64,000 nucleotides of DNA from a virus (taxonomy: Duplodnaviria > Heunggongvirae > Uroviricota > Caudoviricetes). The notes beneath the pieces are model-generated. The model saw nothing but the letters and a program-made list of their open reading frames with translations. It had not been told where the DNA came from and made no database searches. Within the stretch, counting starts at the first letter, position 1; each line of letters starts with the position of its first letter. This document shows, piece after piece, positions 8,371 through 61,260 of this stretch. A program made the translations under genes and the position numbers. The stretch is taken from the IMG/VR virus record IMGVR_UViG_3300027747_001395; one strand, given 5' to 3'.

Positions 8371-8916
8371 GTGTACAATTTGCAACCTCCAAAAGAAACA
8401 TATTATATGATGACATTTCGTGAACGCATGCTTTTCTTAGAGAAGCTAAAAGTAAACAATCATGCTGGTGGTACTTACATGTGTGTCAATATATCTACTA
8501 AAACGCAGAAAGATCTTTCTGCTTGGGTTGCAACTCATAATATTCCCAATGCCTCAGATCCTAAGCAATATCACACCACAATCATCTATAGTCGCAAGGG
8601 TGTTCCTGATGTTAAAGACTATAAACTTGATCTACCACTTACTGGTAAAATAACTAAGTGGGATATTTTCAAGAATGGTGATAAGAACTGTTTGGTAGCT
8701 TTGATTGACTGCCCAGAACTTGTAGAACACCATAAGTCTATTAGAGCACAATTTGGTGCTACTCATGATTTTCCAGACTTCAAGCCTCATATTACAATTA
8801 GTTACGATTATGGTAATACTGATATTCCGAAAGAACTACCGTCGGTTCCTATTGTCTTTACAAAGATACATATTGAGCCACTAGATTCTGACTTCACACC
8901 AGCAAAGGCCGACTGA
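8371..8916 (+). CDS. 2H phosphoesterase superfamily protein (LigT / 2'-5' RNA ligase-like)
   Basis: Two H-x-T/S-x motifs (YHTTIIYS and KPHITISYD) with the spacing typical of 2H enzymes. Confidence 0.55.
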   Translation: MYNLQPPKETYYMMTFRERMLFLEKLKVNNHAGGTYMCVNISTKTQKDLSAWVATHNIPNASDPKQYHTTIIYSRKGVPDVKDYKLDLPLTGKITKWDIFKNGDKNCLVALIDCPELVEHHKSIRAQFGATHDFPDFKPHITISYDYGNTDIPKELPSVPIVFTKIHIEPLDSDFTPAKAD

Positions 8917-8917
8917 T

Positions 8918-9310
8918 ATGAAAGTTATTGTTGCTGGTAATCGGTATAAAGATTCACAAAATAAGATTGTCTTTGATGATTACGACTTAGTTTTAAGTGC
9001 AATCAACTCTTGCGGCTTCTTCATAGATGAACTTGTAAGTGGTACTGCAATCGGGGTTGATCAACTTGGTGAGCAATGGGCACAAACAAGAAGTATTCCT
9101 ATCACAAGAATGCCTGCTGATTGGAACAAATATAATAAAGGTGCTGGTCCAATTCGAAATAGAGCAATGGCTGTTTATGCTGATGCTGCAGTTATTGTCT
9201 GGGATGGTACTTCTGAGGGCACCAGAAGTATGATTAATGAGATGATCCGCATTAAAAAGCCTTATCATCTTCAACTGTCACTATCAACATTGGAGTCTTT
9301 TTATGAGTAA
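8918..9310 (+). CDS. DUF2493 / SLOG-family (YspA-like) protein
   Basis: KVIVAGNR...GVDQLGEQWA...IVWDG pattern typical of the phage SLOG/DprA-like Rossmann family. Confidence 0.5.
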   Translation: MKVIVAGNRYKDSQNKIVFDDYDLVLSAINSCGFFIDELVSGTAIGVDQLGEQWAQTRSIPITRMPADWNKYNKGAGPIRNRAMAVYADAAVIVWDGTSEGTRSMINEMIRIKKPYHLQLSLSTLESFYE

Positions 9311-9980
9311 AGCGAATCTAGTAGGTATTACTATACCAAATTATAAGTACACAAATTGCGACACACCAGAAGAATTAGTAGCTTGGTGTGCTCGTGTAAG
9401 CAATCCTTCTAATCAGAATAATACTGCAACTGCAGGTAAGTTGCTTAAATATCTAATTTCACATCAGCATTGGAGCCCACTTGAAATGCTCCATGTTGCA
9501 ATCGAAGTTAGAACTACCAGAGATATTGCTCGCCAGATGTTACGTCATCGGTCATTTTCCTTTCAAGAATTCAGTCAGCGATATGCAGATCCAACTAAGG
9601 ATCTTGGTTTTGTCACTCGTGAAGCAAGACTTCAGGATACTAAGAATCGCCAAGCTTCTATTGAAGTAGATGATGACACACTTGCAAATGCCTGGTACCA
9701 CTATCAGAAGCGGGTGATTGCTGTCAGCCTTGATGCTTTCAAATGGGCAATTGACAATGGTATTGCAAAGGAACAAGCTCGTGCTGTTTTACCAGAAGGT
9801 CTCACAGAATCGGTGGTAATCGTGTCTGGAACTCTTCGTTCATGGGTTCACTATTGTCAACTTCGTATGGATCAAGCTACTCAGAAAGAACATCGGATTG
9901 TAGCTGAGCAGTGTTGGGCTATTATTGCTAAGGAATTTCCTTCTATTCTTGAGGCATTAAGCAATGATGATTCATTATAA
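9303..9980 (+). CDS. thyX: Flavin-dependent thymidylate synthase ThyX
   Basis: ThyX motif RHRSFSFQEFSQRY (RHRxxSxxxxSxRY). Confidence 0.8.
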   Translation: MSKANLVGITIPNYKYTNCDTPEELVAWCARVSNPSNQNNTATAGKLLKYLISHQHWSPLEMLHVAIEVRTTRDIARQMLRHRSFSFQEFSQRYADPTKDLGFVTREARLQDTKNRQASIEVDDDTLANAWYHYQKRVIAVSLDAFKWAIDNGIAKEQARAVLPEGLTESVVIVSGTLRSWVHYCQLRMDQATQKEHRIVAEQCWAIIAKEFPSILEALSNDDSL

Positions 9981-15024: not shown

Positions 15025-15438
15025 ATGTGGCTTTATGAAAATAAACAATTTGAGAACTCAGATGAGTGGTATGGTTTTATATACTTAATTGAGAACTTAA
15101 AGAATGGTCGAAAGTATATCGGCCGTAAATATCTAACTAAAGCTGCATATAAAACAACAAAAGGTAAACGGAAGAAAATCCGTAAAGAGTCTGATTGGGC
15201 TGATTATTACGGATCATCTCCTTCACTACAAGCCGATGTTGAACTATATGGTAAAGAAAACTTTAAACGTACTATTTTAAGATTATGTAAATCTCGCGGA
15301 GAATGCAACTATTTCGAGGCTAAAGAGATTTTTGATACTGACGCAGTATTGGATGGTAATTACTACAACTCTTGGGTTTCATGTAAGGTCCATGCTGCAC
15401 ACGTCAAAGCATTGCATTTTAACCAGGAGATTTCATGA
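15025..15438 (+). CDS. GIY-YIG homing endonuclease (short form)
   Basis: GFIYLIENLKNGRKYIGRK motif (GIY...YIG). Confidence 0.6.
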   Translation: MWLYENKQFENSDEWYGFIYLIENLKNGRKYIGRKYLTKAAYKTTKGKRKKIRKESDWADYYGSSPSLQADVELYGKENFKRTILRLCKSRGECNYFEAKEIFDTDAVLDGNYYNSWVSCKVHAAHVKALHFNQEIS

Positions 15439-24670: not shown

Positions 24671-25093
24671 ATGATTAAAAGAATTATTCCAATTGAAGAA
24701 CGACCTATGTGTATCGTTCAAGGTTGTTCTAATAAGGGACAGCATACGGGAAATTATAAAAAGAATGGTTATCCAAGTTTTAGAAAAACTTGCACAAAAC
24801 ATCATTCTATTAAGTATGGATTACATGATTGGCATTATAAAATTCACAGAAAAGAATTTTGTGAAAATATTGATGGTAGACTTGAATTTAAATGTACTAC
24901 AATAATTGATTACGAATGGCAACTTGATATTGATCACATTGATGGTGATCCATCAAATAATAAATTAGAAAATCTTCAGACTCTATGTAAATGTTGTCAT
25001 GCTATTAAGACTAAGACAGAACGTGACTATATGTCACCAGGAAGAAAAACTTTAAAAGAAAATGAAAGTACAATTTTTAAGTTTTTTGGTTGA
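24671..25093 (+). CDS. HNH endonuclease
   Basis: DIDHIDGDPSNN...CKCCHAIKT HNH core with Zn-binding cysteines. Confidence 0.6.
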   Translation: MIKRIIPIEERPMCIVQGCSNKGQHTGNYKKNGYPSFRKTCTKHHSIKYGLHDWHYKIHRKEFCENIDGRLEFKCTTIIDYEWQLDIDHIDGDPSNNKLENLQTLCKCCHAIKTKTERDYMSPGRKTLKENESTIFKFFG

Positions 25094-27794: not shown

Positions 27795-27962
27795 ATGTCA
27801 GAAGCTCGCTTTAATCCTGAAGGTAAGGAATTCCTTGGGGTCTATAGGATGCCCAACAAGCCTAATCTGAACCTTCCGGTTTTCTACGATGATAATGGCA
27901 ATACTGTCAATATCATTGGTGTGAAGGTCAACCTCAATCGAATGATTCTTGTTGAAGATTAA
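27795..27962 (+). CDS. Small hypothetical protein (55 aa)
   Basis: ATG after the leader. Its 3' end converges on the minus-strand HNH gene. Confidence 0.4.
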   Translation: MSEARFNPEGKEFLGVYRMPNKPNLNLPVFYDDNGNTVNIIGVKVNLNRMILVED

Positions 27963-28458
27963 ACTTACATCTATCAAAATGCCATCTTTTCATGGCACGA
28001 TATTGTCCTTCTTTATTACAATGTGGGCATATACTCATTGAATTGTTTTGGTTGGCTTTTAATTTACCATATTCACTTGAAAAATAAGAAGAATTTTTAG
28101 TTGGTTCTAAATTAAAAGCTTTTTGAACACATTTAATGTGTGGTGAAGAAGGTTTAATTTTCTTTCTACAACCAACACAATAACAATCTAATTTGTTCCA
28201 AGCAGGAACTTTATTAGGTTTCTTGGCGTAACCACCTTTATAAGAACCTATTATATGTGCAAGTTTTGATGCATCAGATGGGTTAATTTGTTTGGAAAGA
28301 GATTTCCAAGCTATATAATCTTCCCACTTATTATATTTCTCATATAGAATTCTATGCTCTTCTGCATGTTGTTCTATAGTGATGGTTATTAAATTTTTTG
28401 AATCATCGGTTCCTCCCATATGTCGTGGGATTATATGATGTTTATGATAAATACTCAT
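27934..28458 (-). CDS. HNH homing endonuclease (minus strand, AT-rich)
   Basis: HHIIPRHMGGTDD...N HNH signature. Own RBS ggagtatcagctATG on the minus strand. GC lower than its flanks. Confidence 0.6.
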   Translation of the reverse strand: MSIYHKHHIIPRHMGGTDDSKNLITITIEQHAEEHRILYEKYNKWEDYIAWKSLSKQINPSDASKLAHIIGSYKGGYAKKPNKVPAWNKLDCYCVGCRKKIKPSSPHIKCVQKAFNLEPTKNSSYFSSEYGKLKANQNNSMSICPHCNKEGQYRAMKRWHFDRCKFNLQQESFD

Positions 28459-31597: not shown

Positions 31598-32422
31598 ATG
31601 AAGATTAAACTATTTGCTCTTATTGCTACTTCTGCTCTTGCTCTTGGCGCTTGTTCACAGGTTGAACCAGGTCATGTTGGTATTCGTGTTGATCAATATG
31701 GATCTGGTGCTGGAGTCTCCAAGGACTCACTACCTGTCGGTACTTACTTTACTGGCGTTGGTACTACAATCTATGAATATCCTGTCTTTACTAAGACTTA
31801 TACCTGGACAATTAACAAGACTGAAGATTCTGTTGTTAATGAAGAATTCTCATTTGCTGATAAGAGCGGTTTAACTCTTACTGGTGACGTATCTGTAAGC
31901 TATCACGTGGATGCTACCAAGGCTCCAATTCTGTTTCAAAAGTATCGTATGGACATGGATGCAATTGTCTCGGGACCACTTCGAGTAGCCATCCGCGGTG
32001 CAATTAACAACGAAGCTTCCAAGATGACTGTTGAGGAAATCTACGGTTCACGTAAGGCCGAATTGATTGCTCTAGCTCAGGCTGATGTTCGGAAGTTCTT
32101 CAGTCCATTTGGTCTTGAGGTAGAACGAGTTGAATGGGCTTCACCAGTTCGAGTTCCAGAAACAGTTATGCGTCAGATCAATGCCAAGATTGCTAACGAG
32201 CAACAAGCTCTAGCAGCTCAGGCTAACGTAGCTACCGCTGAAGCTGATGCCCGCGCAAAGGTTGCTAAGGCTGAAGGTGATGCTAAGGCAACTCAGATTG
32301 AAGCTGAGGCTCTAAGATCTAACCCTAAGATTCTTGAGCAGAAGGCAATTGATAAGTGGGATGGACACTTTCCAACTTATATGGGTGGTAATGCACCACT
32401 TCCTTTTCTTAAAGTCGATTAA
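31598..32422 (+). CDS. SPFH/band-7 (prohibitin/HflK-like) lipoprotein
   Basis: Signal peptide plus lipobox LALGAC. SPFH-like core and a C-terminal Ala/Glu-rich coiled coil. Confidence 0.6.
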   Translation: MKIKLFALIATSALALGACSQVEPGHVGIRVDQYGSGAGVSKDSLPVGTYFTGVGTTIYEYPVFTKTYTWTINKTEDSVVNEEFSFADKSGLTLTGDVSVSYHVDATKAPILFQKYRMDMDAIVSGPLRVAIRGAINNEASKMTVEEIYGSRKAELIALAQADVRKFFSPFGLEVERVEWASPVRVPETVMRQINAKIANEQQALAAQANVATAEADARAKVAKAEGDAKATQIEAEALRSNPKILEQKAIDKWDGHFPTYMGGNAPLPFLKVD

Positions 32423-32619
32423 AGCTTAAAGATTGAACCATCTTCTCCGAGGATGACTAATGCGCCCTTGCCTTTGTTTCCGTAAATACAGGATGCTAAG
32501 GCAAGGGCTTCTTTTTCACTTCTGGTATCAAATGTTGTAAAAAAGACACTTTGATTCTGATGCAAGCATGGGATTGCATAAAGGGATTTGGTCTCACTTG
32601 GTTCAATTTTCTTAGACAT
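32419..32619 (-). CDS. Hypothetical protein (lone minus-strand gene)
   Basis: Strong minus-strand RBS aggagatttttATG. Convergent 4-nt overlap with the SPFH gene. Confidence 0.5.
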   Translation of the reverse strand: MSKKIEPSETKSLYAIPCLHQNQSVFFTTFDTRSEKEALALASCIYGNKGKGALVILGEDGSIFKL

Positions 32620-32657
32620 AAAAATCTCCTATTTTGTTTTATTTATGCAAAATTCAG

Positions 32658-32735
32658 TTGACATTTTATCAAAAGTGGAATATATATAAACTATGAAGGG
32701 ATAGACCCTTCAATTTTTACTCAAAGGAGTTTTGA
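32658..32735 (+). promoter_or_regulatory. Promoter-family repeat plus leader with GGGATAGACCC hairpin
   Basis: TTGACAttttatcaaaagtggaaTATATAtaaactatgaaGGGATAGACCCttc. Confidence 0.5.
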
Positions 32736-32738
32736 GAA

Positions 32739-33833
32739 ATGACTGACACTAAAGAATTTGATCTACTAGTTTTCATTGGAAGATTCCAACCTTTCCATCT
32801 TGAACATCAGCGTGTCATTGCCACTGCTCTTGAAAAGGCCAAGAATGTTCTTGTGCTTGTGGGCAGTGCCGGCAAGGCTCGAACTGTTCGCAATCCTTTC
32901 ACCTTTGAAGAACGGAAGGATATGATCAATGGCTCATTCGACTGTAACGGTGGGCGGCAATGTCGTATTATCATCAAACCAATCTACGATAAGACCTATA
33001 ACGATGCTGCCTGGATTAAACAGGTTCAAGACGTCGTTAAAGATGCTGCGCTTGATATTCTCAATGATGGTGGTTTCCGGTCTGTCGGTCTAAGCGATGC
33101 TAAGGTGGGTCTGATTGGTGCCTCGAAGGATAATACATCCTACTACTTGAAGTTGTTCCCTCAGTGGTCCTCGGTTAATGTTCCAATCGAACGTGAAATG
33201 CATGCTACGGTTATTCGCGAGCACTTCATTGATGGCACATTTGAGCGACATCTGATGGATAACGTTCTAGTTCCACGAAGTGTGGCTAAGTTTCTCTTCG
33301 AAGACTTTATCCATACTGATTCTTATGCTCAACTTCGCCGAGAGTTAGAACATGTCCGCAAGTACAAGAAGGCCTGGGAAGCGGCACCATATCCTGTTAA
33401 ACATGTCACAGTTGATGCTGTGGTTGAACAGAGTGGACACATTCTACTTGTAAAGCGAAAAGCAGAACCAGGCAAGGGTCTCTGGGCAATTCCTGGCGGG
33501 CATCTTGAGATGGATGAAACCGTCTTGAATGGCATCATCCGTGAACTAAAGGAAGAAACTGGAATCAAGGTTCCTACAGCTGTCTTGCTTGGCTCGATTG
33601 TAGCTCAAAACGTCTTTGATGATCCACATCGTTCGACTATCGGCCGTGTGATTACGCATGCTGCTCACATTCATCTGTCAAGTGAAACAAAGCTACCCAA
33701 GCTAAAAATTCCCAAAGGTGAGCACGGCGAAGACGAAGTTGACAAGGTCAAATGGGTTCCTATTAGTGACCTCCGTGAAGATCAAATGTTTGATGATCAC
33801 TTTCACATCATCAACTATTTTCTGGGAGTTTAA
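32739..33833 (+). CDS. natV: Bifunctional NMN adenylyltransferase / Nudix ADP-ribose pyrophosphatase (KVP40 NatV-like)
   Basis: NMNAT motif LVFIGRFQPFHLEHQ. Nudix box GGHLEMDETVLNGIIRELKEETGI. Confidence 0.8.
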   Translation: MTDTKEFDLLVFIGRFQPFHLEHQRVIATALEKAKNVLVLVGSAGKARTVRNPFTFEERKDMINGSFDCNGGRQCRIIIKPIYDKTYNDAAWIKQVQDVVKDAALDILNDGGFRSVGLSDAKVGLIGASKDNTSYYLKLFPQWSSVNVPIEREMHATVIREHFIDGTFERHLMDNVLVPRSVAKFLFEDFIHTDSYAQLRRELEHVRKYKKAWEAAPYPVKHVTVDAVVEQSGHILLVKRKAEPGKGLWAIPGGHLEMDETVLNGIIRELKEETGIKVPTAVLLGSIVAQNVFDDPHRSTIGRVITHAAHIHLSSETKLPKLKIPKGEHGEDEVDKVKWVPISDLREDQMFDDHFHIINYFLGV

Positions 33834-33835
33834 TC

Positions 33836-34099
33836 ATGGCTACTATTATTGAATACTTTGAGGTTTTAGATGATGATGGATATAACCGTGATGGTCCATC
33901 ATCATCTGCTAGATTTCTGTCACTTATTGCTGCTGAGAAATATGCAGCACTTAATCGAAATAGATATGTGAATAAAACAAAGAAGAAGATTATCATTTAT
34001 GATAGTGCTGAGGAAGTAGATCTACATAAGAGAGAAGATCTTAAACAATCTGCAATTAGTAAACTCACTACAGATGAACGCGTAGCTCTAGGAGTCTAA
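33836..34099 (+). CDS. Hypothetical protein
   Basis: ORF of 87 aa. Confidence 0.45.
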   Translation: MATIIEYFEVLDDDGYNRDGPSSSARFLSLIAAEKYAALNRNRYVNKTKKKIIIYDSAEEVDLHKREDLKQSAISKLTTDERVALGV

Positions 34100-34401
34100 T
34101 GATGAAACCTATTAAACCAAGTGATATAGCCACAGCTAAACAAACTGCAATTCCTGAAGTTGTTATCGAAGTAATTAATAATTTGCTTGCTCTTAAGTTT
34201 TCAAATGGTAGAGCAACAATTTATCAAAAGGATATCGTAAATTCGCTTCTTAAAAATGGCGATATATCAAAAGATGAAATCTTTAATTTAGGTTATCTCA
34301 ATTTTGAAGAGATCTATCGAGAACAAGGTTGGAAAGTAACTTACGATAAGCCTGGCTATGGAGAAAGTTATGATGCATTCTTCGAATTTAAGGTGAAATA
34401 A
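34099..34401 (+). CDS. Hypothetical protein
   Basis: ORF of 100 aa. Confidence 0.45.
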   Translation: MMKPIKPSDIATAKQTAIPEVVIEVINNLLALKFSNGRATIYQKDIVNSLLKNGDISKDEIFNLGYLNFEEIYREQGWKVTYDKPGYGESYDAFFEFKVK

Positions 34402-34403
34402 GA

Positions 34404-34574
34404 TGCGATATGAACTACGAAGATGGACTGATAGTTCAAAGACTGATTATGTAATCAGACAGCTATCAGACGATAGAAATGCTATTGAAGCTCAACTCGA
34501 ACGAGTGCTTAATGCAAGCACAGAACCAAATCTTAACTATATTGTAGATACAGTAGGTGAATATGATGACTGAG
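34404..34574 (+). CDS. Small hypothetical protein (56 aa)
   Basis: RBS aaggtgaaataagATG. Confidence 0.4.
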
Positions 34575-34731
34575 ACTAAACCAAAACGAAATACTTGTTA
34601 TACTATTACTGCTCAAACTCCATTACTTCGACCAGGCCTGAGTATTCAAGTAAATACAAGTGAACGATATGCTGCTGAAGCAGTAGATCTTCTTATGGAA
34701 GTCGTCAGACAAGTTAATAATAAGGACTGAG
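34564..34731 (+). CDS. Small hypothetical protein (55 aa)
   Basis: RBS gtaggtgaatATG. Confidence 0.4.
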
Positions 34732-34734
34732 AAT

Positions 34735-35037
34735 ATGACGATTAAACCTTACTCCATCGGCTCTTCTGAGTGGAATGGTCTTTCAAAAGTAATTGAAGAG
34801 CTAGGTGAGCTTCAGCAAGTCTGCGGTAAGACTATTGGTTCTGGTGGTGATCAAAATCATTGGTCTGGTAATCTTGTTGAGAAGTTTATTGAAGAGATTG
34901 GTGATAGCTATGCAGCACTTGATTTCTTTGTTGACCAGAACTTTAGTAGAGAAGATCAAGCTAGGATCTATAAACAAGCTCATATGAAGTACGAACGATT
35001 CAGACAATGGGATAAAGAAACTAAACAAAACGATTGA
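34735..35037 (+). CDS. MazG-like nucleotide pyrophosphohydrolase
   Basis: EELGELQQVCGK and FIEEIGDSYAAL (EExGE/D metal-binding pairs). Confidence 0.55.
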   Translation: MTIKPYSIGSSEWNGLSKVIEELGELQQVCGKTIGSGGDQNHWSGNLVEKFIEEIGDSYAALDFFVDQNFSREDQARIYKQAHMKYERFRQWDKETKQND

Positions 35038-35060
35038 CATTATCTAGAATTGGTGTATAA
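35024..35060 (+). promoter_or_regulatory. sigma70 promoter (canonical TTGACA-N16-TATAAT)
   Basis: TTGACAttatctagaattggtgTATAATag. Confidence 0.6.
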
Positions 35061-35096
35061 TAGTTATATAGAGATAATGTATTAGGGGTTTGATTT

Positions 35097-35579
35097 ATGT
35101 TACTACATGCTAAAGGTAATCTTATTGATATGGCCGAACAAGGTCTATTCGATGTAATCGTCCACGGATGCAACTGTCAGAATACTATGGGATCTGGTAT
35201 TGCTAAAGAGATTCGTGCTCGATATCCTCAAGCTTATGAAGCCGACTCTGCAATGATCTATACCTATCAGAAGCCCGTATTGAAGCTCGGCAACTTTAGT
35301 GTGGCTGCAGACAATCAAATCGATCCCAAGTTTGAGATCGTAAATGCCTACACTCAGCTTCATTATCTGCCTCGCAGTATAGATCACTTTGACTATGAAT
35401 CGTTCAAATTGATTCTCAGAAAGCTTGAAGTTATTGCACCAGATGCTCGTTTTGGTTTCCCATACATCGGGATGGGCCTTGCTGGTGGCAATTCCAAGCG
35501 TATCTTAGCATTACTAGAAAAATTTGCAGTGGATATTACCGCAACTGGTGGTTCTGCTACACTTGTGGAATTTGGATAA
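35097..35579 (+). CDS. Macro domain protein (ADP-ribose / O-acetyl-ADP-ribose processing)
   Basis: DVIVHGCNCQNTMGSGIAKEI matches the macro-domain ADP-ribose binding loop. Confidence 0.7.
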   Translation: MLLHAKGNLIDMAEQGLFDVIVHGCNCQNTMGSGIAKEIRARYPQAYEADSAMIYTYQKPVLKLGNFSVAADNQIDPKFEIVNAYTQLHYLPRSIDHFDYESFKLILRKLEVIAPDARFGFPYIGMGLAGGNSKRILALLEKFAVDITATGGSATLVEFG

Positions 35580-35584
35580 AAAGG

Positions 35585-35779
35585 ATGCCTTACATGAAAA
35601 TTGTTGTAAATGAAGAAGATATGAAGCCAGACGTTAAAAATAGATGGTTTGATGCCAGGATAAGTGGTGACAATCTTAAAGTTGAAGATTTTTATCTTGG
35701 TGCACATATGCTTAATACAGCTCAAGTTATTGTCTTTGAATCTGCTTATATTTCAGTTAAAAAGATTCTAAAAAAGTAA
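35585..35779 (+). CDS. Hypothetical small protein
   Basis: ORF of 64 aa. Confidence 0.4.
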   Translation: MPYMKIVVNEEDMKPDVKNRWFDARISGDNLKVEDFYLGAHMLNTAQVIVFESAYISVKKILKK

Positions 35780-35788
35780 AAATACCAG

Positions 35789-35870
35789 TTGACATTTTTA
35801 TGAGAATGGTATAGACTAAACATAATGGCAACGGGATAGACCCAAAGCCCAAACGATAGAGGAGTTCTAT
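35789..35870 (+). promoter_or_regulatory. Promoter-family repeat plus leader with GGGATAGACCC
   Basis: TTGACAtttttatgagaatggTATAGACTaaacataatggcaacGGGATAGACCCaaagcc. Confidence 0.5.
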
Positions 35871-35871
35871 T

Positions 35872-37242
35872 ATGAAAAACATTATTTTAAACGCAGACTC
35901 GTACAAGTACAGTCAGTTCAATCAATACCCCGAAGGTACAGAGTACATCTACTCTTACATCGAAAGCCGTGGCGGCAAGTATGATGAAACAGTCTTCTTT
36001 GGTCTTCAGGCTTTCATCAAGGAATACTTGACTGATCCAATTACCATGGACATGATTGATGAAGCTGAGGCTATTATCACAGCTCATGGTGAACCTTTCA
36101 ACCGTGCGGGATGGGAACATATTCTCAATGCACATGACGGCTACCTGCCTGTTACTATCAAGGCAGTTCCTGAAGGTACGGTTGTTCCTGTCAAGAACAT
36201 TCTTGCTTCGATTGTCAACATGGACCCAGAATGCTACTGGTTGACTTCGTTTCTTGAGACTGCATTGCTTCGAGCAATTTGGTATCCTACAACTGTGGCT
36301 ACTAACAGCCGTGAAATTAAGAAGGTGATCCTTGATGCACTTGAACGAACAGGCACTCCAGCTGACATTAATTTTAAGCTTCATGACTTCGGTGCTCGTG
36401 GGGTCAGTAGTCTTGAGTCTGCCGGGATCGGCGGCGCAGCACATCTTGTCAACTTCATGGGTACGGATACTGTTGAAGCTTTACTTTTTGCTCGCAGGTA
36501 TTACAGTGCTGACATGGCTGGTTTTAGCGTTCCTGCAATGGAGCACTCAACTGTAACAAGCTGGGGTCGAGAAGGTGAGGTTGCTTCTTACCGGAACATG
36601 GTTAAGAAGAATGGTAAGCCTGGTGGTATTGTTTCGGCCGTCTCTGACAGCTATGATATCTACGAAGCTTGCCGTCTCTGGGGTACAGAACTCAAGCAGG
36701 ACATTATCGACTCGGGTGCTAAGCTTGTAGTTCGTCCTGACTCGGGTGATCCAGCTGAGGTTGTAACTAAGTGTCTTCGAATTCTTGATCAGTACTTTGG
36801 TAGTACAATTAATGAGAAGGGCTACAAGGTTCTTAACAACGTTGGTGTTCTTCAGGGTGATGGTATTACGATTGATTCGATTAAAGACATCTTGCGATGG
36901 TCTGAAGCTGCTGGTTTCAGTGCTGACAATCTTGTCTTTGGTCAGGGTGGTGCTCTTCTTCAGATCGTAAACCGAGATGACCAGAAGTTTGCCATGAAGA
37001 CTAGCGCTGCTTTCATCAAGGATAAGGGCTGGGTTGACGTGTTCAAAGATCCAATTACCGATCCTGGTAAGAAGTCTAAGAAGGGTATGCTGAAGCTTAT
37101 CCGTACTGAAAGTGGTGAATACAATACTACTCGAGATACGGCAGCAATGTCTTATCCTGATGTTCTTGAAGTTGTATTCTCGATGGGCAAGCTTATTCGT
37201 GATCAAAACTTTGCAGATATCCGTGCTAGGGCAGAAATTTAA
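35872..37242 (+). CDS. nadV: Nicotinamide phosphoribosyltransferase (NAMPT / NadV)
   Basis: 456 aa. N-terminal ILNADSYKYSQF and overall NAMPT-family architecture. Confidence 0.85.
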   Translation: MKNIILNADSYKYSQFNQYPEGTEYIYSYIESRGGKYDETVFFGLQAFIKEYLTDPITMDMIDEAEAIITAHGEPFNRAGWEHILNAHDGYLPVTIKAVPEGTVVPVKNILASIVNMDPECYWLTSFLETALLRAIWYPTTVATNSREIKKVILDALERTGTPADINFKLHDFGARGVSSLESAGIGGAAHLVNFMGTDTVEALLFARRYYSADMAGFSVPAMEHSTVTSWGREGEVASYRNMVKKNGKPGGIVSAVSDSYDIYEACRLWGTELKQDIIDSGAKLVVRPDSGDPAEVVTKCLRILDQYFGSTINEKGYKVLNNVGVLQGDGITIDSIKDILRWSEAAGFSADNLVFGQGGALLQIVNRDDQKFAMKTSAAFIKDKGWVDVFKDPITDPGKKSKKGMLKLIRTESGEYNTTRDTAAMSYPDVLEVVFSMGKLIRDQNFADIRARAEI

Positions 37243-37309
37243 AAATAATTTTGTGAAACTTTGTTACGGCACGGATTTCTTGTATATATAATTTACTTGA
37301 AGAAATCGT

Positions 37310-38169: not shown

Positions 38170-38205
38170 GTTTACATTTATTCGGTTTTGGTATAGAGTT
38201 GAAAA
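38170..38205 (+). promoter_or_regulatory. Promoter-family repeat (variant TTTACA)
   Basis: TTTACAtttattcggttttgGTATAGAGTtg. Confidence 0.45.
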
Positions 38206-38730
38206 ATGGAAACACAACTTGAACATTTGATCGGTCGAGGTATGGACCCAACTAGGTATCCAATCTCGTATGATCCAGAGGAAGGTATCATCACCTTTCT
38301 TCTGTTTAACTATAATGGTGGTCTTGTTGGTTACCAGCAGTATAGACCAGATCAGGCTTCTAAACAAAAGAAGAATGATCCTAAGACTGGCAGGTATTAT
38401 ACATATCTCCCTAAAGATACTGACGGCGTGTTTGGACTTGATGTTCTTAATCATGCTGACAGGACTATTTATGTGGTTGAAGGTGTGTTTAAAGCAGCGG
38501 TTCTACATCGTCTAGGTTTTAATGCTCTTGCGGTTCTTACTTCGACACCTAAGAGGCTCAAGCCTTGGTTTCGAATTTTGCGACCGACATGGAATCTGGT
38601 TGCTATTGGTGATAATGATGATGCCGGTCAAAAACTGGTTAACATTGTCGGCCGAGGCTTTCAGTCTCCAGAAGATCTTGACGAAATGTCAGATGAGGAA
38701 ATTTTGGAACTTCTGAAACATAATGGTTGA
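38206..38730 (+). CDS. TOPRIM-domain protein
   Basis: TIYVVEGVFKAAVL (Toprim Glu) and WNLVAIGDNDDAGQK (DxD). Confidence 0.5.
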   Translation: METQLEHLIGRGMDPTRYPISYDPEEGIITFLLFNYNGGLVGYQQYRPDQASKQKKNDPKTGRYYTYLPKDTDGVFGLDVLNHADRTIYVVEGVFKAAVLHRLGFNALAVLTSTPKRLKPWFRILRPTWNLVAIGDNDDAGQKLVNIVGRGFQSPEDLDEMSDEEILELLKHNG

Positions 38731-39377: not shown

Positions 39378-39450
39378 CTTATGGTAGCTCATCGGTAGAG
39401 CATCTGACTTCAACTCAGACGGAACGGGTTCAATTCCCGTACAACAAACC
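39378..39450 (+). tRNA. tRNA-like element with anticodon loop cuUCAac (would read UGA); acceptor stem not evident
   Basis: D-arm gctc-atcggtag-agc. Anticodon stem tctga/tcaga. T-arm acggg-ttcaatt-cccgt. No paired acceptor, no CCA. Confidence 0.3.
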
Positions 39451-42761: not shown

Positions 42762-43226
42762 ATGTATATCACAATGGAAGAATATCTTTCTAAGACTAGA
42801 GAAGAAAGAAGATCACATCTGAAACTTAATGAGTCTTGTATTGAAATTGGCCATAAACATAATGCAGAATTAAGAGTTCTGTTGGCACATAAATTTAAAG
42901 TACTTTTTCCTACAAAAAAGTATATGGCTGCAGTTTGTCATGCTTGTAACAACACCAAGTGCTCAAATTCAGACCATTTATATTGGGGAAGTCCTTTTGA
43001 TAATATACAAGATCAAAAAGAGGCGGGGACTCTCACTTCTATAAATGAAAGAACCATAAATAAATATGGGTCAGAAATTTACAAAGAGTTACATAAAAAT
43101 TCTTCTAAGAAAGGCGGCTTATCTAATAAAGGTAAACCTAAAACAGAAGAACATAAAAGAAAAATTAAAGAGTCATTATTACGGAGGGCAGCACCAGCAG
43201 TGCGGGAGGGACTTATATCCCCTTAA
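42762..43226 (+). CDS. HNH homing endonuclease (HNH_3-type)
   Basis: CHACNNTKCSNSDHLYWGSPFDN motif. Preceded by a TATAAATA (T4-late-like) element and RBS aggagtatatATG. Confidence 0.6.
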   Translation: MYITMEEYLSKTREERRSHLKLNESCIEIGHKHNAELRVLLAHKFKVLFPTKKYMAAVCHACNNTKCSNSDHLYWGSPFDNIQDQKEAGTLTSINERTINKYGSEIYKELHKNSSKKGGLSNKGKPKTEEHKRKIKESLLRRAAPAVREGLISP

Positions 43227-48968: not shown

Positions 48969-49649
48969 ATGCAAAAGTATTATACAATTTATCAGATAAC
49001 AGACTTACTTAATAATAAAATTTATATCGGTAAACACGAAACATATGATCTTAATGATAATTACATGGGTTCTGGTAAATTATTAACTAGATCTCAAAAG
49101 AAACACGGTTTAGAAAATTTTAAGAAAGAACTTCTTTTCATATTTAGTTCAGAAGAAGAAATGAACTCTAAAGAAGCTGAACTTGTAACCGAGGACTTCT
49201 GCCTTCGTGAGGACACTTACAATATCTGTCCCGGAGGAAAAGGCGGTTGGGGTTATATTAATAAGAATGGAAAAAGAAATGGTTTGGAAGTAACCATGTT
49301 TGTTCTTGAATATAGAAAAATATTTTTTGATGGATTAAATAAGGGAAGAGTTACTCAAAAGATATTATGGAAACAAAATGGTTTATGGGCAGAAGAAAGA
49401 AGAAAAAAGGTTTCAGAAAGCAATAAAAATTATTATAATAATGGCGGTGTTAATGGATTTAGTGGTAAAATTCACACCGAAGAAACTAAGAAAAAAATGG
49501 GAATTGCAAATTCTCTTTCACAATCTGGTTCAAAAAATTCTCAATTTGGGTCAATATGGATTACAAATGGTACTGAGAATAAAAAAATAAAAAAGACAGA
49601 TATAATTCCTGAGAATTGGTATTCTGGAAGAAAATTAAACAACAAGTGA
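48969..49649 (+). CDS. GIY-YIG homing endonuclease with NUMOD-like C-terminal repeats
   Basis: IYQITDLLNNKIYIGKHET (GIY-YIG). Lys-rich repetitive DNA-binding tail. Preceded by TATAAATA and a 14-bp hairpin. Confidence 0.65.
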   Translation: MQKYYTIYQITDLLNNKIYIGKHETYDLNDNYMGSGKLLTRSQKKHGLENFKKELLFIFSSEEEMNSKEAELVTEDFCLREDTYNICPGGKGGWGYINKNGKRNGLEVTMFVLEYRKIFFDGLNKGRVTQKILWKQNGLWAEERRKKVSESNKNYYNNGGVNGFSGKIHTEETKKKMGIANSLSQSGSKNSQFGSIWITNGTENKKIKKTDIIPENWYSGRKLNNK

Positions 49650-60286: not shown

Positions 60287-60364
60287 GCTTTGTTAGCTCA
60301 GTGGTCAAGAGCGGTGATCTCTAAAATCATGCCGTCGGGGGTTCAAATCCCCCACAAAGCACCA
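60287..60364 (+). tRNA. Suppressor tRNA (anticodon CTA, reads amber UAG), Gln-like
   Basis: Perfect acceptor gctttgt/acaaagc plus CCA. D gctc/gagc. Anticodon stem gtgat/atcat, loop ctCTAaa (cf. tRNA-Gln loop ctCTGaa). T-arm ggggg-ttcaaat-ccccc. Confidence 0.65.
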
Positions 60365-60870: not shown

Positions 60871-61260
60871 ATGAGATACTACAGTTATTTTTTCACCCGA
60901 CAAGATATGTCGCCTGAGCAACAAGTAGTTCAGACTGCACATGCTGCTTTTCAACTTGGTGTTCATTCTCAACGAGCTATTGTTGAAAAGACTGCTTCTG
61001 GTGATGGTTACGTCTCTTGTCAGTTTAATGATAAGGTAGTTCCTGAACAGACTCACTTTACACTAATTGGTGTTCGTGATGCTGGTGCTCTTAATGCAGT
61101 TGAGCGAATACTTAAGAAGTTTGGTTATCGGTATGAGAAGTTCTTCGAGCCTGATCTAAAAGATGGTGAGTTTACTTCAATTGCCGTTTATCCAATCTCT
61201 GAGTATGACCGAGATGTTTTAATGGCATTTAATTTGCTTAAGATCGCAAAAATTGGTTGA
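60871..61260 (+). CDS. Hypothetical protein (weak PTH2-like pattern)
   Basis: VQTAHAAFQLG and TLIGVRDAGALN loosely resemble PTH2 motifs. Confidence 0.4.
   Translation: MRYYSYFFTRQDMSPEQQVVQTAHAAFQLGVHSQRAIVEKTASGDGYVSCQFNDKVVPEQTHFTLIGVRDAGALNAVERILKKFGYRYEKFFEPDLKDGEFTSIAVYPISEYDRDVLMAFNLLKIAKIG

Follow-up and report, generated by a model that had tools for sequence, protein, structure and literature searches.

A predicted ADP-ribose-1''-phosphate phosphatase gene and a candidate regulatory hairpin in a NARP2-type NAD+ reconstitution locus from a freshwater phage

NAD+ depletion is among the commonest strategies by which bacteria resist phages, and the rebuilding of NAD+ by phages is being studied intensively. 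NARP2, a published phage pathway of NAD+ reconstitution, overcomes NAD+-depleting defences experimentally, yields excess NAD+ even without a defence system and consumes phosphoribosyl pyrophosphate (PRPP), and it is reported to be costly or toxic (bioRxiv 10.1101/2024.02.11.579819). Defence proteins with a RES domain split NAD+ into nicotinamide and ADP-ribose-1''-phosphate (ADPR-1''-P), a product that another such pathway, NARP1, is unable to use; Adpp, a Poa1p-like macro-domain phosphatase encoded in ~15% of NARP1 operons, was validated as an ADPR-1''-P phosphatase with the protein of Vibrio phage Gary (KNV71_gp137) (10.64898/2026.01.28.702374). To date, all descriptions of Adpp place it in NARP1 operons. 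Here, we describe a locus at positions 32658-37242 of a 64,000-nucleotide stretch of the IMG/VR virus record IMGVR_UViG_3300027747_001395 (the whole stretch is referred to below as the window), in which a homologous macro-domain gene lies between natV and nadV, the two genes of NARP2, and in which the leaders of natV and nadV carry the same hairpin. We consider, with moderate confidence, that this is a NARP2-type NAD+ reconstitution cassette to which a phosphatase has been added and whose two NARP2 genes share an RNA control element.

The NARP2 pair and the macro-domain protein

Every gene of the locus lies on the + strand. The natV gene (32739-33833, 364 aa) encodes a NadM-Nudix protein, a bifunctional nicotinamide mononucleotide (NMN) adenylyltransferase and ADP-ribose (ADPR) pyrophosphatase, and lies ~2 kb upstream of nadV (35872-37242, 456 aa), which encodes a nicotinamide phosphoribosyltransferase (Nampt). 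NatV matched the Pfam families CTP_transf_like (PF01467) and NUDIX (PF00293), the NCBIfam equivalog model for bifunctional NMN adenylyltransferase/Nudix hydrolases (NF003786; 405.6 bits, cutoff 397) and phrog_395 (3e-79), and its Nudix box (G-x5-E-x7-REUxEExGU), read from the translation, is intact: GHLEMDETVLNGIIRELKEETGI. NadV matched Pfam NAMPT_N and NAPRTase, NCBIfam NF006629 (636 bits, cutoff 405) and phrog_448 (2e-168), and its closest protein match is from Ralstonia phage RsoM2USA (62% identity). With 45% identity to the protein of the KVP40-like phage VH7D compared with 28% to a NARP1 Namat, NadV is by its sequence a member of the Nampt family and not of the Namat family, and a tblastn search of the 64-kb window with the Quinn Adps found no homologue of this mark of NARP1. 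NatV and NadV are therefore the published NARP2 pathway, and in this respect the pair is already known.

Between these genes, a 160-aa macro-domain protein is encoded at 35097-35579 (+ strand). Its Pfam Macro score (20.2 bits) falls just below the cutoff of 22, but it matched phrog_335 ('phosphatase') at 1.6e-42, and a sequence search of the PDB returned yeast Poa1p and a DarG macrodomain, both at ~1e-5. An AlphaFold2 model of the protein (pLDDT 84) gave 162 Foldseek matches in the PDB at E<=0.001, which among the matches listed are almost all macro domains, with the top TM-scores of 0.72-0.74 going to Poa1p and BT1257. Adpp of Vibrio phage Gary (KNV71_gp137) shares 29% identity with it (BLASTP E 3e-11; 98% in hhalign), and the motifs HGCNC, MGxGIA, KLG, NxYTQ and IGxGLAGG are common to the window protein and to macro proteins flanked by Adps and Namat. 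Taking the Poa1p residue of interest from the name of a PDB mutant entry (6lfs, H23A), we found that Poa1p H23 aligns with an invariant H23 of the macro protein, and S30 aligns with T30. The catalytic lysine of the DarG/TARG1 ADP-ribosyl glycohydrolases, which lies in their PTK motif, corresponds to an invariant glutamine: the position in PTKKHW aligns with Gln87 in YTQLHY. The histidine of the HxCNC motif is common to the macro protein, Poa1p and Adpp, and is Asn in DarG. The macro protein is thus a member of the Adpp/Poa1p family as judged from its sequence, and we infer that it acts as an ADPR-1''-P phosphatase.

NadV-encoding loci were collected from IMG/VR and ENA and the other genes were placed by tblastn, which gave a sample of 37 non-redundant loci. 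In 33 of the 37, natV precedes nadV by at most 6 kb, and the macro gene lies between them in 22 and downstream in one further locus. The three genes often form a tight trio, where the macro gene starts 6 nt past natV and ends ~80 nt before nadV. The order is kept in L042, L076 and L088 (loci are numbered with the prefix L) despite NatV identities of 39-43%, and also in contigs of 90-360 kb whose flanks share 1-4 other open reading frames (ORFs) with the window. Among 50,697 deposited phage records, the macro family occurs in 2,676 and adjoins NatV in 3, a rarity that is probably why the association went unreported: macro domains are not mentioned in the 2024 NARP paper (bioRxiv 10.1101/2024.02.11.579819), and the neighbours of NadM and NadV noted by Iyer et al. 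2022 are NADAR domains and not macro domains. In Rhizobium phage RHph_I1_18, NatV and NadV are followed by a macro protein annotated as 'Appr-1-p processing'; a tblastn search with the window macro protein did not find it, so it appears to be only distantly related, and this arrangement is a second, independent association.

A preliminary description of this DNA, made from the letters alone, had placed four genes here, and all four are present on the + strand at the coordinates given. Its assignment of NadV and NatV as an NAD+ regeneration pair agrees with the Pfam, NCBIfam and PHROG matches alike, including those to NAPRTase in NadV and to CTP_transf_like and NUDIX in NatV, and its proposal of counter-defence by NAD+ reconstitution was correct for this core, which has been published as NARP2. 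It had also called the macro domain, an assignment that the PHROG and Foldseek matches bear out despite the sub-cutoff Pfam score, and had counted the macro gene as part of the NAD+ unit. This membership is supported by an order that persists in 22 of 37 loci with otherwise differing flanks and by the homology to Adpp, and we read NatV-macro-NadV as the counterpart, in NARP2, of the published combination of NARP1 with a phosphatase.

A separate observation concerns the integrity of nadV in some relatives. In L053-L055 (10001-12500), L056 and L057, the NadV match stops after residues 1-234 and is followed by an ORF like the GIY-YIG endonuclease encoded at 48969-49649 of the window, and then by the remainder of NadV. 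This suggests that nadV in these relatives is interrupted by an insertion that bears a homing endonuclease (an intron or similar).

A hairpin in the natV and nadV leaders

The leaders of natV and nadV both fold into two hairpins. In the natV leader, hairpin 1 (32694-32712, + strand) has a 7-bp stem (UGAAGGG/CCCUUCA) that closes an AUAGA loop, and hairpin 2 (32720-32736, + strand; CUCAAA-GGAGU-UUUGAG) displays the Shine-Dalgarno sequence in its loop. In the nadV leader, hairpin 1 (35827-35849, + strand) consists of a GGC/GCC outer stem, an A-rich internal loop and a GGG/CCC inner stem, again with an AUAGA loop, and hairpin 2 (35855-35871, + strand; GAUAGA-GGAGU-UCUAUU) likewise carries the Shine-Dalgarno sequence in its loop. 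All four are found in minimum free energy (MFE) folds, and the two-hairpin architecture with a Shine-Dalgarno sequence in the second loop was recovered in 6 of the 6 MFE folds tested. The 11-mer GGGATAGACCC occurs in exactly two copies in the window, one in each of these leaders.

When the leaders of relatives were aligned, the g-AUAGA-c loop was constant while the stem was different in each phage. A search of 667 kb of non-redundant loci on both strands identified 68 ATAGA-loop hairpins with a stem of at least 4 bp, of which 35 lie 15-70 nt upstream of natV or nadV starts, a region that makes up 0.3% of the sequence searched. When 53 leaders were aligned without gaps, all nine loop-proximal stem pairs vary on both sides, and they are paired in 81% of cases compared with 49% in shuffles, with a covariation score of 0.79 against 0.21 in shuffles (0 of 500 reach the observed value) and 0.10-0.21 in slid controls; this alignment was built by taking the best stem next to an A-N-AGA loop, so the inner-pair statistics are inflated by the selection of sequences for a stem.

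A covariance model built from this alignment recovered only the natV and nadV leaders in the window (31.7 and 29.8 bits, respectively; next best 14.9). Beyond uncultured relatives, the hairpin extends to cultured cyanophages and to jumbo phages of Xanthomonas. In 263 kb of sequence outside the training set, its two best matches lie exactly upstream of natV and nadV of Synechococcus phage B23, and weaker matches precede both genes in Xanthomonas phage LucasX. Synechococcus phage BUCT-ZZ01 has matches before both genes, and Xanthomonas phage RTH11 has one at natV only, and inspection by eye shows a G-GUAGA-C variant in its nadV leader. Changes to the loop or closing pair are concerted between the two leaders: the sequence is c-AGAGA-g in both leaders of L044, the loop is AAAGA in both of BUCT-ZZ01, and both leaders of L045 carry a C-G closing pair.

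Rfam 15, including its NAD+ riboswitches, gave no match in the leaders, and the only hits in 32600-37300 were two chance snoRNA matches (E>3). There is no such hairpin before the macro gene or in the NARP1-AP operons (those with Adpp) that were examined, it was not found in vB_VmeM-32 or RHph_I1_18, and the other 29 early leaders of the window are short, conserved and hairpin-free. The phages that bear the hairpin include uncultured freshwater phages as well as phages with hosts from cyanobacteria to Xanthomonas, and in LucasX and in loci such as L021 and L048 natV and nadV are the sole cassette genes found. Given these wide hosts and this minimal gene content, the simplest explanation is that a recognising factor would be encoded by the cassette, or that the RNA itself senses something. 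The g-AUAGA-c hairpin is a candidate shared regulatory RNA and the most novel element of the locus.

Three other roles for the hairpin were considered and rejected. A pseudoknot between the loop and the UCUAU before the nadV start has no partner in natV leaders and is left uncompensated by the AGAGA variant of L044; an intrinsic terminator is contradicted by the lack of a T-run after most copies; and a piece of a generic early-promoter cassette would be expected in the other leaders, which are short and lack it.

Further sightings of similar elements are recorded here for completeness. A scan of genome contigs with NadV gave two loci, with the phage-type leader present in one and absent from the other, a Rubrivivax locus. 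In the former, L108 (3916-3956; CAZFPB010000002.1, a 330-kb contig labelled as a Pseudobdellovibrionaceae metagenome-assembled genome), the nadV leader has a 10-bp stem and an ATAGA loop followed by ATAGAAAGGAGTTTTCTATG, and this contig may be a misbinned jumbo phage. Extra long-stemmed g-ATAGA-c hairpins occur 400-500 nt upstream of natV in L042 (4409-4435) and L061 (7967-7989), where they precede unrelated ORFs of ~110-135 aa with coiled-coil stretches that may be further members of the same regulon. The loop and closing pair of the nadV hairpin, GATAGAC (35835-35841), resemble the phage -10 element (TATAGACT or GGTAGACT; 35810-35817), and a t-ATAGA-g hairpin (38186-38204) before the ORF at 38206 overlaps such a -10 box.

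Transcription units, the MazG-like gene and the genome setting

The -35 motif TTGACATTW has 31 copies in the window, all on the + strand, compared with 2.85 expected, and TTGACA-N16-18-TAGACT has 12 copies compared with 0.02 expected. An early sigma-70-like promoter (32658-32686, + strand) precedes the natV operon, with TTGACA at 32658-32663, a 17-nt spacer and TATATA at 32681-32686; the macro gene has a perfect TTGACA-16-TATAAT promoter (35034-35061, + strand; 12/12 matches), and nadV has an early TTGACA-17-TAGACT promoter (35789-35817, + strand). The natV gene is followed by four small ORFs (87, 100, 56 and 57 aa; 33836-34730, + strand) that are co-transcribed with it and then by a MazG-like gene (34735-35037, + strand), the last gene of the operon, in a packed run with gaps of -17 to +4 nt, and no separate promoter precedes the MazG-like gene. 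The three promoters and the position of the MazG-like gene inside the natV run define three transcription units and not four, contrary to the preliminary description, which had given each of its four genes an early promoter. The four small ORFs and a 64-aa ORF 3' of the macro gene (35585-35779, + strand) are five further ORFs that it did not include; the former are present in some relatives only, and the sole Pfam or PHROG match among all five is that of the 87-aa ORF to phrog_5370.

Across the window, a repeated early-promoter cassette (TTGACATTTTT...GGTAGACT) occurs at 31 sites between 10681 and 62551 (for example 23468, 25090, 25868, 44774 and 58867), on the + strand only. It is followed by a near-identical short leader, AAACTATAAGGAATGGAGAT(C/T)AACATG, precedes many small ORFs and resembles the mobile promoter cassettes of T4-type phages.

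The 100-aa product of the MazG-like gene is probably an all-alpha NTP pyrophosphohydrolase. It gave no match in Pfam or NCBIfam and only chance matches in PDB sequence and profile searches, and it matched phrog_4856 at 4e-7. The residues of its EExxE(12-28 residues)EExxD metal-binding motif (E21, E22, E25, E53, E54 and D57) are invariant in 26 homologues. The first 25 Foldseek matches all belong to the MazG family (DCTPP1/RS21-C6, iMazG, YpjD and MazG) at non-significant E-values of ~0.2-0.6, and an hhalign comparison with a Pfam-MazG protein was in register and weak (E 0.06). The MazG-like character given in the preliminary description is probable on the evidence of the invariant motif and the PHROG match, and the Pfam search that it proposed as a check gave no match.

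This gene is found in 7 of the 37 loci, all of which are syntenic with the window and carry it directly upstream of the macro gene, and it is absent from 15 of the 22 NatV-macro-NadV loci. Among deposited phages, homologues are limited to 13 records, whose genomes measure 57-65 kb and whose hosts are Pseudomonas, Xanthomonas and Stenotrophomonas. Elsewhere, homologues adjoin Acb1, canonical MazG or thymidylate synthase, another lies near Tad3 in a T4-like early region, and in L012 the gene follows Acb1, in the slot held by a SLOG gene in the window. Because it is lineage-specific and has other contexts elsewhere, we did not count it as a member of the NAD+ unit, in which the preliminary description had placed it, and we conclude that it is a movable accessory gene, which may itself be anti-defensive.

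A megablast search of the region against the deposited phage records gave no DNA-level match, which indicates a phage without a close cultured relative, and identical or near-identical sequences come from freshwater metagenomes. The window is part of a large phage: it encodes a ribonucleotide reductase, ThyX, PhoH, a T4-type RNase H, an ATP-dependent ligase and several homing endonucleases, together with a CCA-adding-type nucleotidyltransferase, PTH2 and an RNase H-like protein. Downstream of nadV, 27 tRNA genes are scattered among small ORFs (37732-60364); the anticodons of two are of the suppressor type, namely tca at 39379 (called tRNA-SeC) and cta at 60287 (called tRNA-Pyl). Past this array, 24 kb 3' of NadV, is a 129-aa ORF (60871-61260) without a family match, which directly follows NadV in L023, L032, L035, L037, L038 and L046 (~1.4 kb after the NadV start), so the tRNA region looks like an insertion between NadV and that ORF. 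Upstream of natV, a Band_7/SPFH-domain gene (31598-32422) is also found in L001, L003, L008, L043 and L053, and a minus-strand ORF of 66-67 aa sits beside it in the window (32419-32619), L001 and L003.

At least four to five homing-endonuclease-type genes are present (15025-15438, 24671-25093, 27934-28458 on the minus strand, 42762-43226 and 48969-49649), of SegE-like GIY-YIG and HNH types and with a weak His-Me match at 42762-43226, and their scatter in the early region fits heavy gene shuffling among relatives. A homologue of the anti-CBASS protein Acb1 is encoded at 8371-8916 (Pfam 2.9e-33), with a SLOG/YAcAr-domain protein directly behind it (8918-9310) and ThyX next (9303-9980), and this stretch (8371-9980) has the appearance of another candidate anti-defence site of the window.

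The proposed cassette, its rivals and described systems

As homology shows, NadV converts nicotinamide and PRPP to NMN, the N-terminal domain of NatV converts NMN and ATP to NAD+, and the C-terminal Nudix domain of NatV hydrolyses ADPR to AMP and ribose-5-phosphate. The macro protein would dephosphorylate ADPR-1''-P to ADPR; ADPR-1''-P arises from RES-type NAD+ cleavage and may also arise from other 1''-substituted ADPR derivatives. The ADPR made in this way could then pass to the NatV Nudix domain, whose products, AMP and ribose-5-phosphate, are precursors of ATP and PRPP. This would dispose of a breakdown product, feed its carbon and phosphate back into ATP and PRPP synthesis and so partly repay what NARP2 spends. 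At the RNA level, the natV and nadV messages, made from separate early promoters, would both present hairpin 1 followed by hairpin 2 with its ribosome-binding site. A common trans-acting factor, most simply one encoded by the cassette, might recognise hairpin 1 and co-regulate the translation or stability of both messages, which would couple the two enzymes and perhaps limit costly or toxic NAD+ overproduction. The MazG-like gene and the small ORFs would be lineage-specific passengers of the natV operon.

Several findings weigh against this proposal. NARP2 alone cancels aRES defence (10.64898/2026.01.28.702374), so the phosphatase is dispensable for that phenotype and the selective value of the macro protein is the weakest link; its benefit would lie in recycling and detoxification. 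Its identity to the validated Adpp is just 29%, and the same macro clade includes the DNA de-ADP-ribosylase DarG, the top Foldseek match by E-value. In 15 of the 37 loci, among them most of those with a NadV of <66% identity, the NatV-NadV interval lacks the macro gene, which in Synechococcus phage B23 lies 22 kb away from NadV. The hairpin is absent from RsoM2USA, ACP17 and Mx1 and from the nadV leader of the KVP40-like VH7D, and the selection of stems described above tempers its pairing statistics.

The kinship with DarG raises the alternative that the macro protein removes ADP-ribose from macromolecules, such as phage DNA modified by DarT or proteins and RNA modified by ADP-ribosyltransferases (ARTs), and that it adjoins the NAD+ genes through the plasticity of the early region. 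DarG macrodomains account for a PDB sequence match at 1.4e-5 as well as the top Foldseek match, the NCBIfam DarG model matches weakly (1.1e-5), and in L008 an ART-PolyVal gene lies ~6 kb downstream. We nevertheless think this unlikely, as the catalytic-lysine position of DarG is occupied by the invariant Gln87, the HxCNC histidine of Poa1p and Adpp is Asn in DarG, and the NatV-macro-NadV order persists where the flanks are otherwise unrelated; Pfam scans of the window ORFs, which were not a dedicated search, brought no DarT or ART to notice. About as improbable, in our judgement, is an auxiliary metabolic module that raises NAD+ for replication, in which the macro protein clears ADPR-1''-P or O-acetyl-ADPR produced by RNA repair or sirtuins. 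The heavy investment in tRNA (27 genes, the CCA-adding-type nucleotidyltransferase, PTH2 and the RNase H-like protein) is in keeping with it, as are the native role of Poa1p in tRNA splicing (10.64898/2026.01.28.702374), the RNA-repair origins of ADPR-1''-P discussed by Iyer et al. 2022 and the excess NAD+ that NARP2 makes without any defence system (bioRxiv 10.1101/2024.02.11.579819). However, the scanned ORFs include no KptA/Tpt1, sirtuin or NAD+-dependent ligase (the ligase is ATP-dependent), the anti-defence phenotype of NARP2 has been demonstrated (bioRxiv 10.1101/2024.02.11.579819), and an anti-CBASS Acb1 is encoded in the same window.

For the hairpin, a role without a specific partner is also conceivable, as a 5'-terminal stabiliser or as a remnant that travels with the cassette and whose loop is kept by descent. 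Hairpin 1 begins a few nucleotides past the -10 box, and 5' stem-loops at such positions commonly protect mRNA; in addition, the NadV proteins encoded with the hairpin are related more closely to one another than to other NadV proteins, and a 5-nt loop is small for ligand binding. This explanation is rather doubtful in view of an invariant loop on fully diverged stems across cyanobacterial, Xanthomonas and uncultured freshwater phages, of the same loop being kept independently in two leaders per genome with changes to the loop or closing pair that hit both, and of its absence from the other early leaders of the window. A little less doubtful, and still tentative, is a stronger version of the regulatory idea, in which the hairpin would be the operator of an autoregulation borne by the cassette: one of the two enzymes, NatV or NadV, either as such or bound to a ligand so as to sense NAD+, NMN or ADPR, would bind both leaders and match NAD+ rebuilding to demand, and with the phosphatase this would make a self-contained, horizontally mobile 'NARP2-AP' module. 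We regard it as very unlikely that the MazG-like protein is an integral fourth enzyme, perhaps one that hydrolyses a pyrophosphate-bearing ADPR or nucleotide signal. Its gene is co-transcribed with natV and directly precedes the macro gene in 7 of the 7 loci that have it, and the homologues that adjoin anti-CBASS Acb1 elsewhere make an anti-defence role plausible; yet it is missing from 15 of 22 cassette loci, has just 13 deposited records and shifts position among relatives, as in L012, where it follows Acb1.

If the proposed phosphatase-extended NARP2 cassette is real, a phosphatase as a conserved insert of NARP2 in abundant uncultured freshwater phages would extend the account of this arms race, and would point to recycling or detoxification by phages of the ADPR moiety of cleaved NAD+ even where the cofactor is rebuilt from PRPP. 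The leader hairpin offers a testable handle on how phages control a pathway that is reportedly costly and toxic, and a compact marker by which metagenomes can be searched for such cassettes; under the autoregulatory version, a phage anti-defence pathway would for the first time have a described cis-regulatory RNA.

Among described systems, NARP2 of KVP40 has the same two enzymes, adjacent and early-expressed, to which the window adds the macro gene between them, the small ORFs and the MazG-like gene; the conserved leader hairpin of natV and nadV in the window has no counterpart upstream of nadV in the KVP40-like VH7D. The MazG-like protein resembles MazG, DCTPP1 and iMazG in motif spacing and in a predicted helical fold, and at ~100 aa is of the size of iMazG and HisE, but differs in lacking Pfam or PDB sequence matches and in the non-significance of its structural matches, and a MazG link as a conserved feature is not supported. 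The translational operators of T4 (gp43, gp32 and RegA) are small hairpins with conserved loops just upstream of the ribosome-binding sites of early genes. The leader hairpin is similar in its small size, conserved loop and position, and differs in that two different genes share the putative operator. As with the PeSL promoter/stem-loop cassettes of T4-type phages (PMC2839356, PMC4122927), the window has a repeated early-promoter cassette, but the AUAGA hairpin lies outside the repeat, is confined to natV and nadV and is conserved between genomes and not within one.

Yeast Poa1p (PDB 6LFQ) shares with the macro protein its fold (TM 0.72-0.74), the HxCNC motif and G-rich phosphate loops, at ~20% identity, and Poa1p F152 corresponds to Ala129 of the window protein, in a GLAGG motif as in phage Adpp. 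The closest analogue of the macro link is the published NARP1-AP of Vibrio phage Gary (Adps-Adpp-Namat), where a homologous macro gene likewise lies between two NAD+-rebuilding enzymes. In the window, these neighbours are NatV and NadV instead of Adps and Namat, and NARP2 does not build directly on ADPR; the NatV Nudix domain would degrade ADPR and not pyrophosphorylate it.

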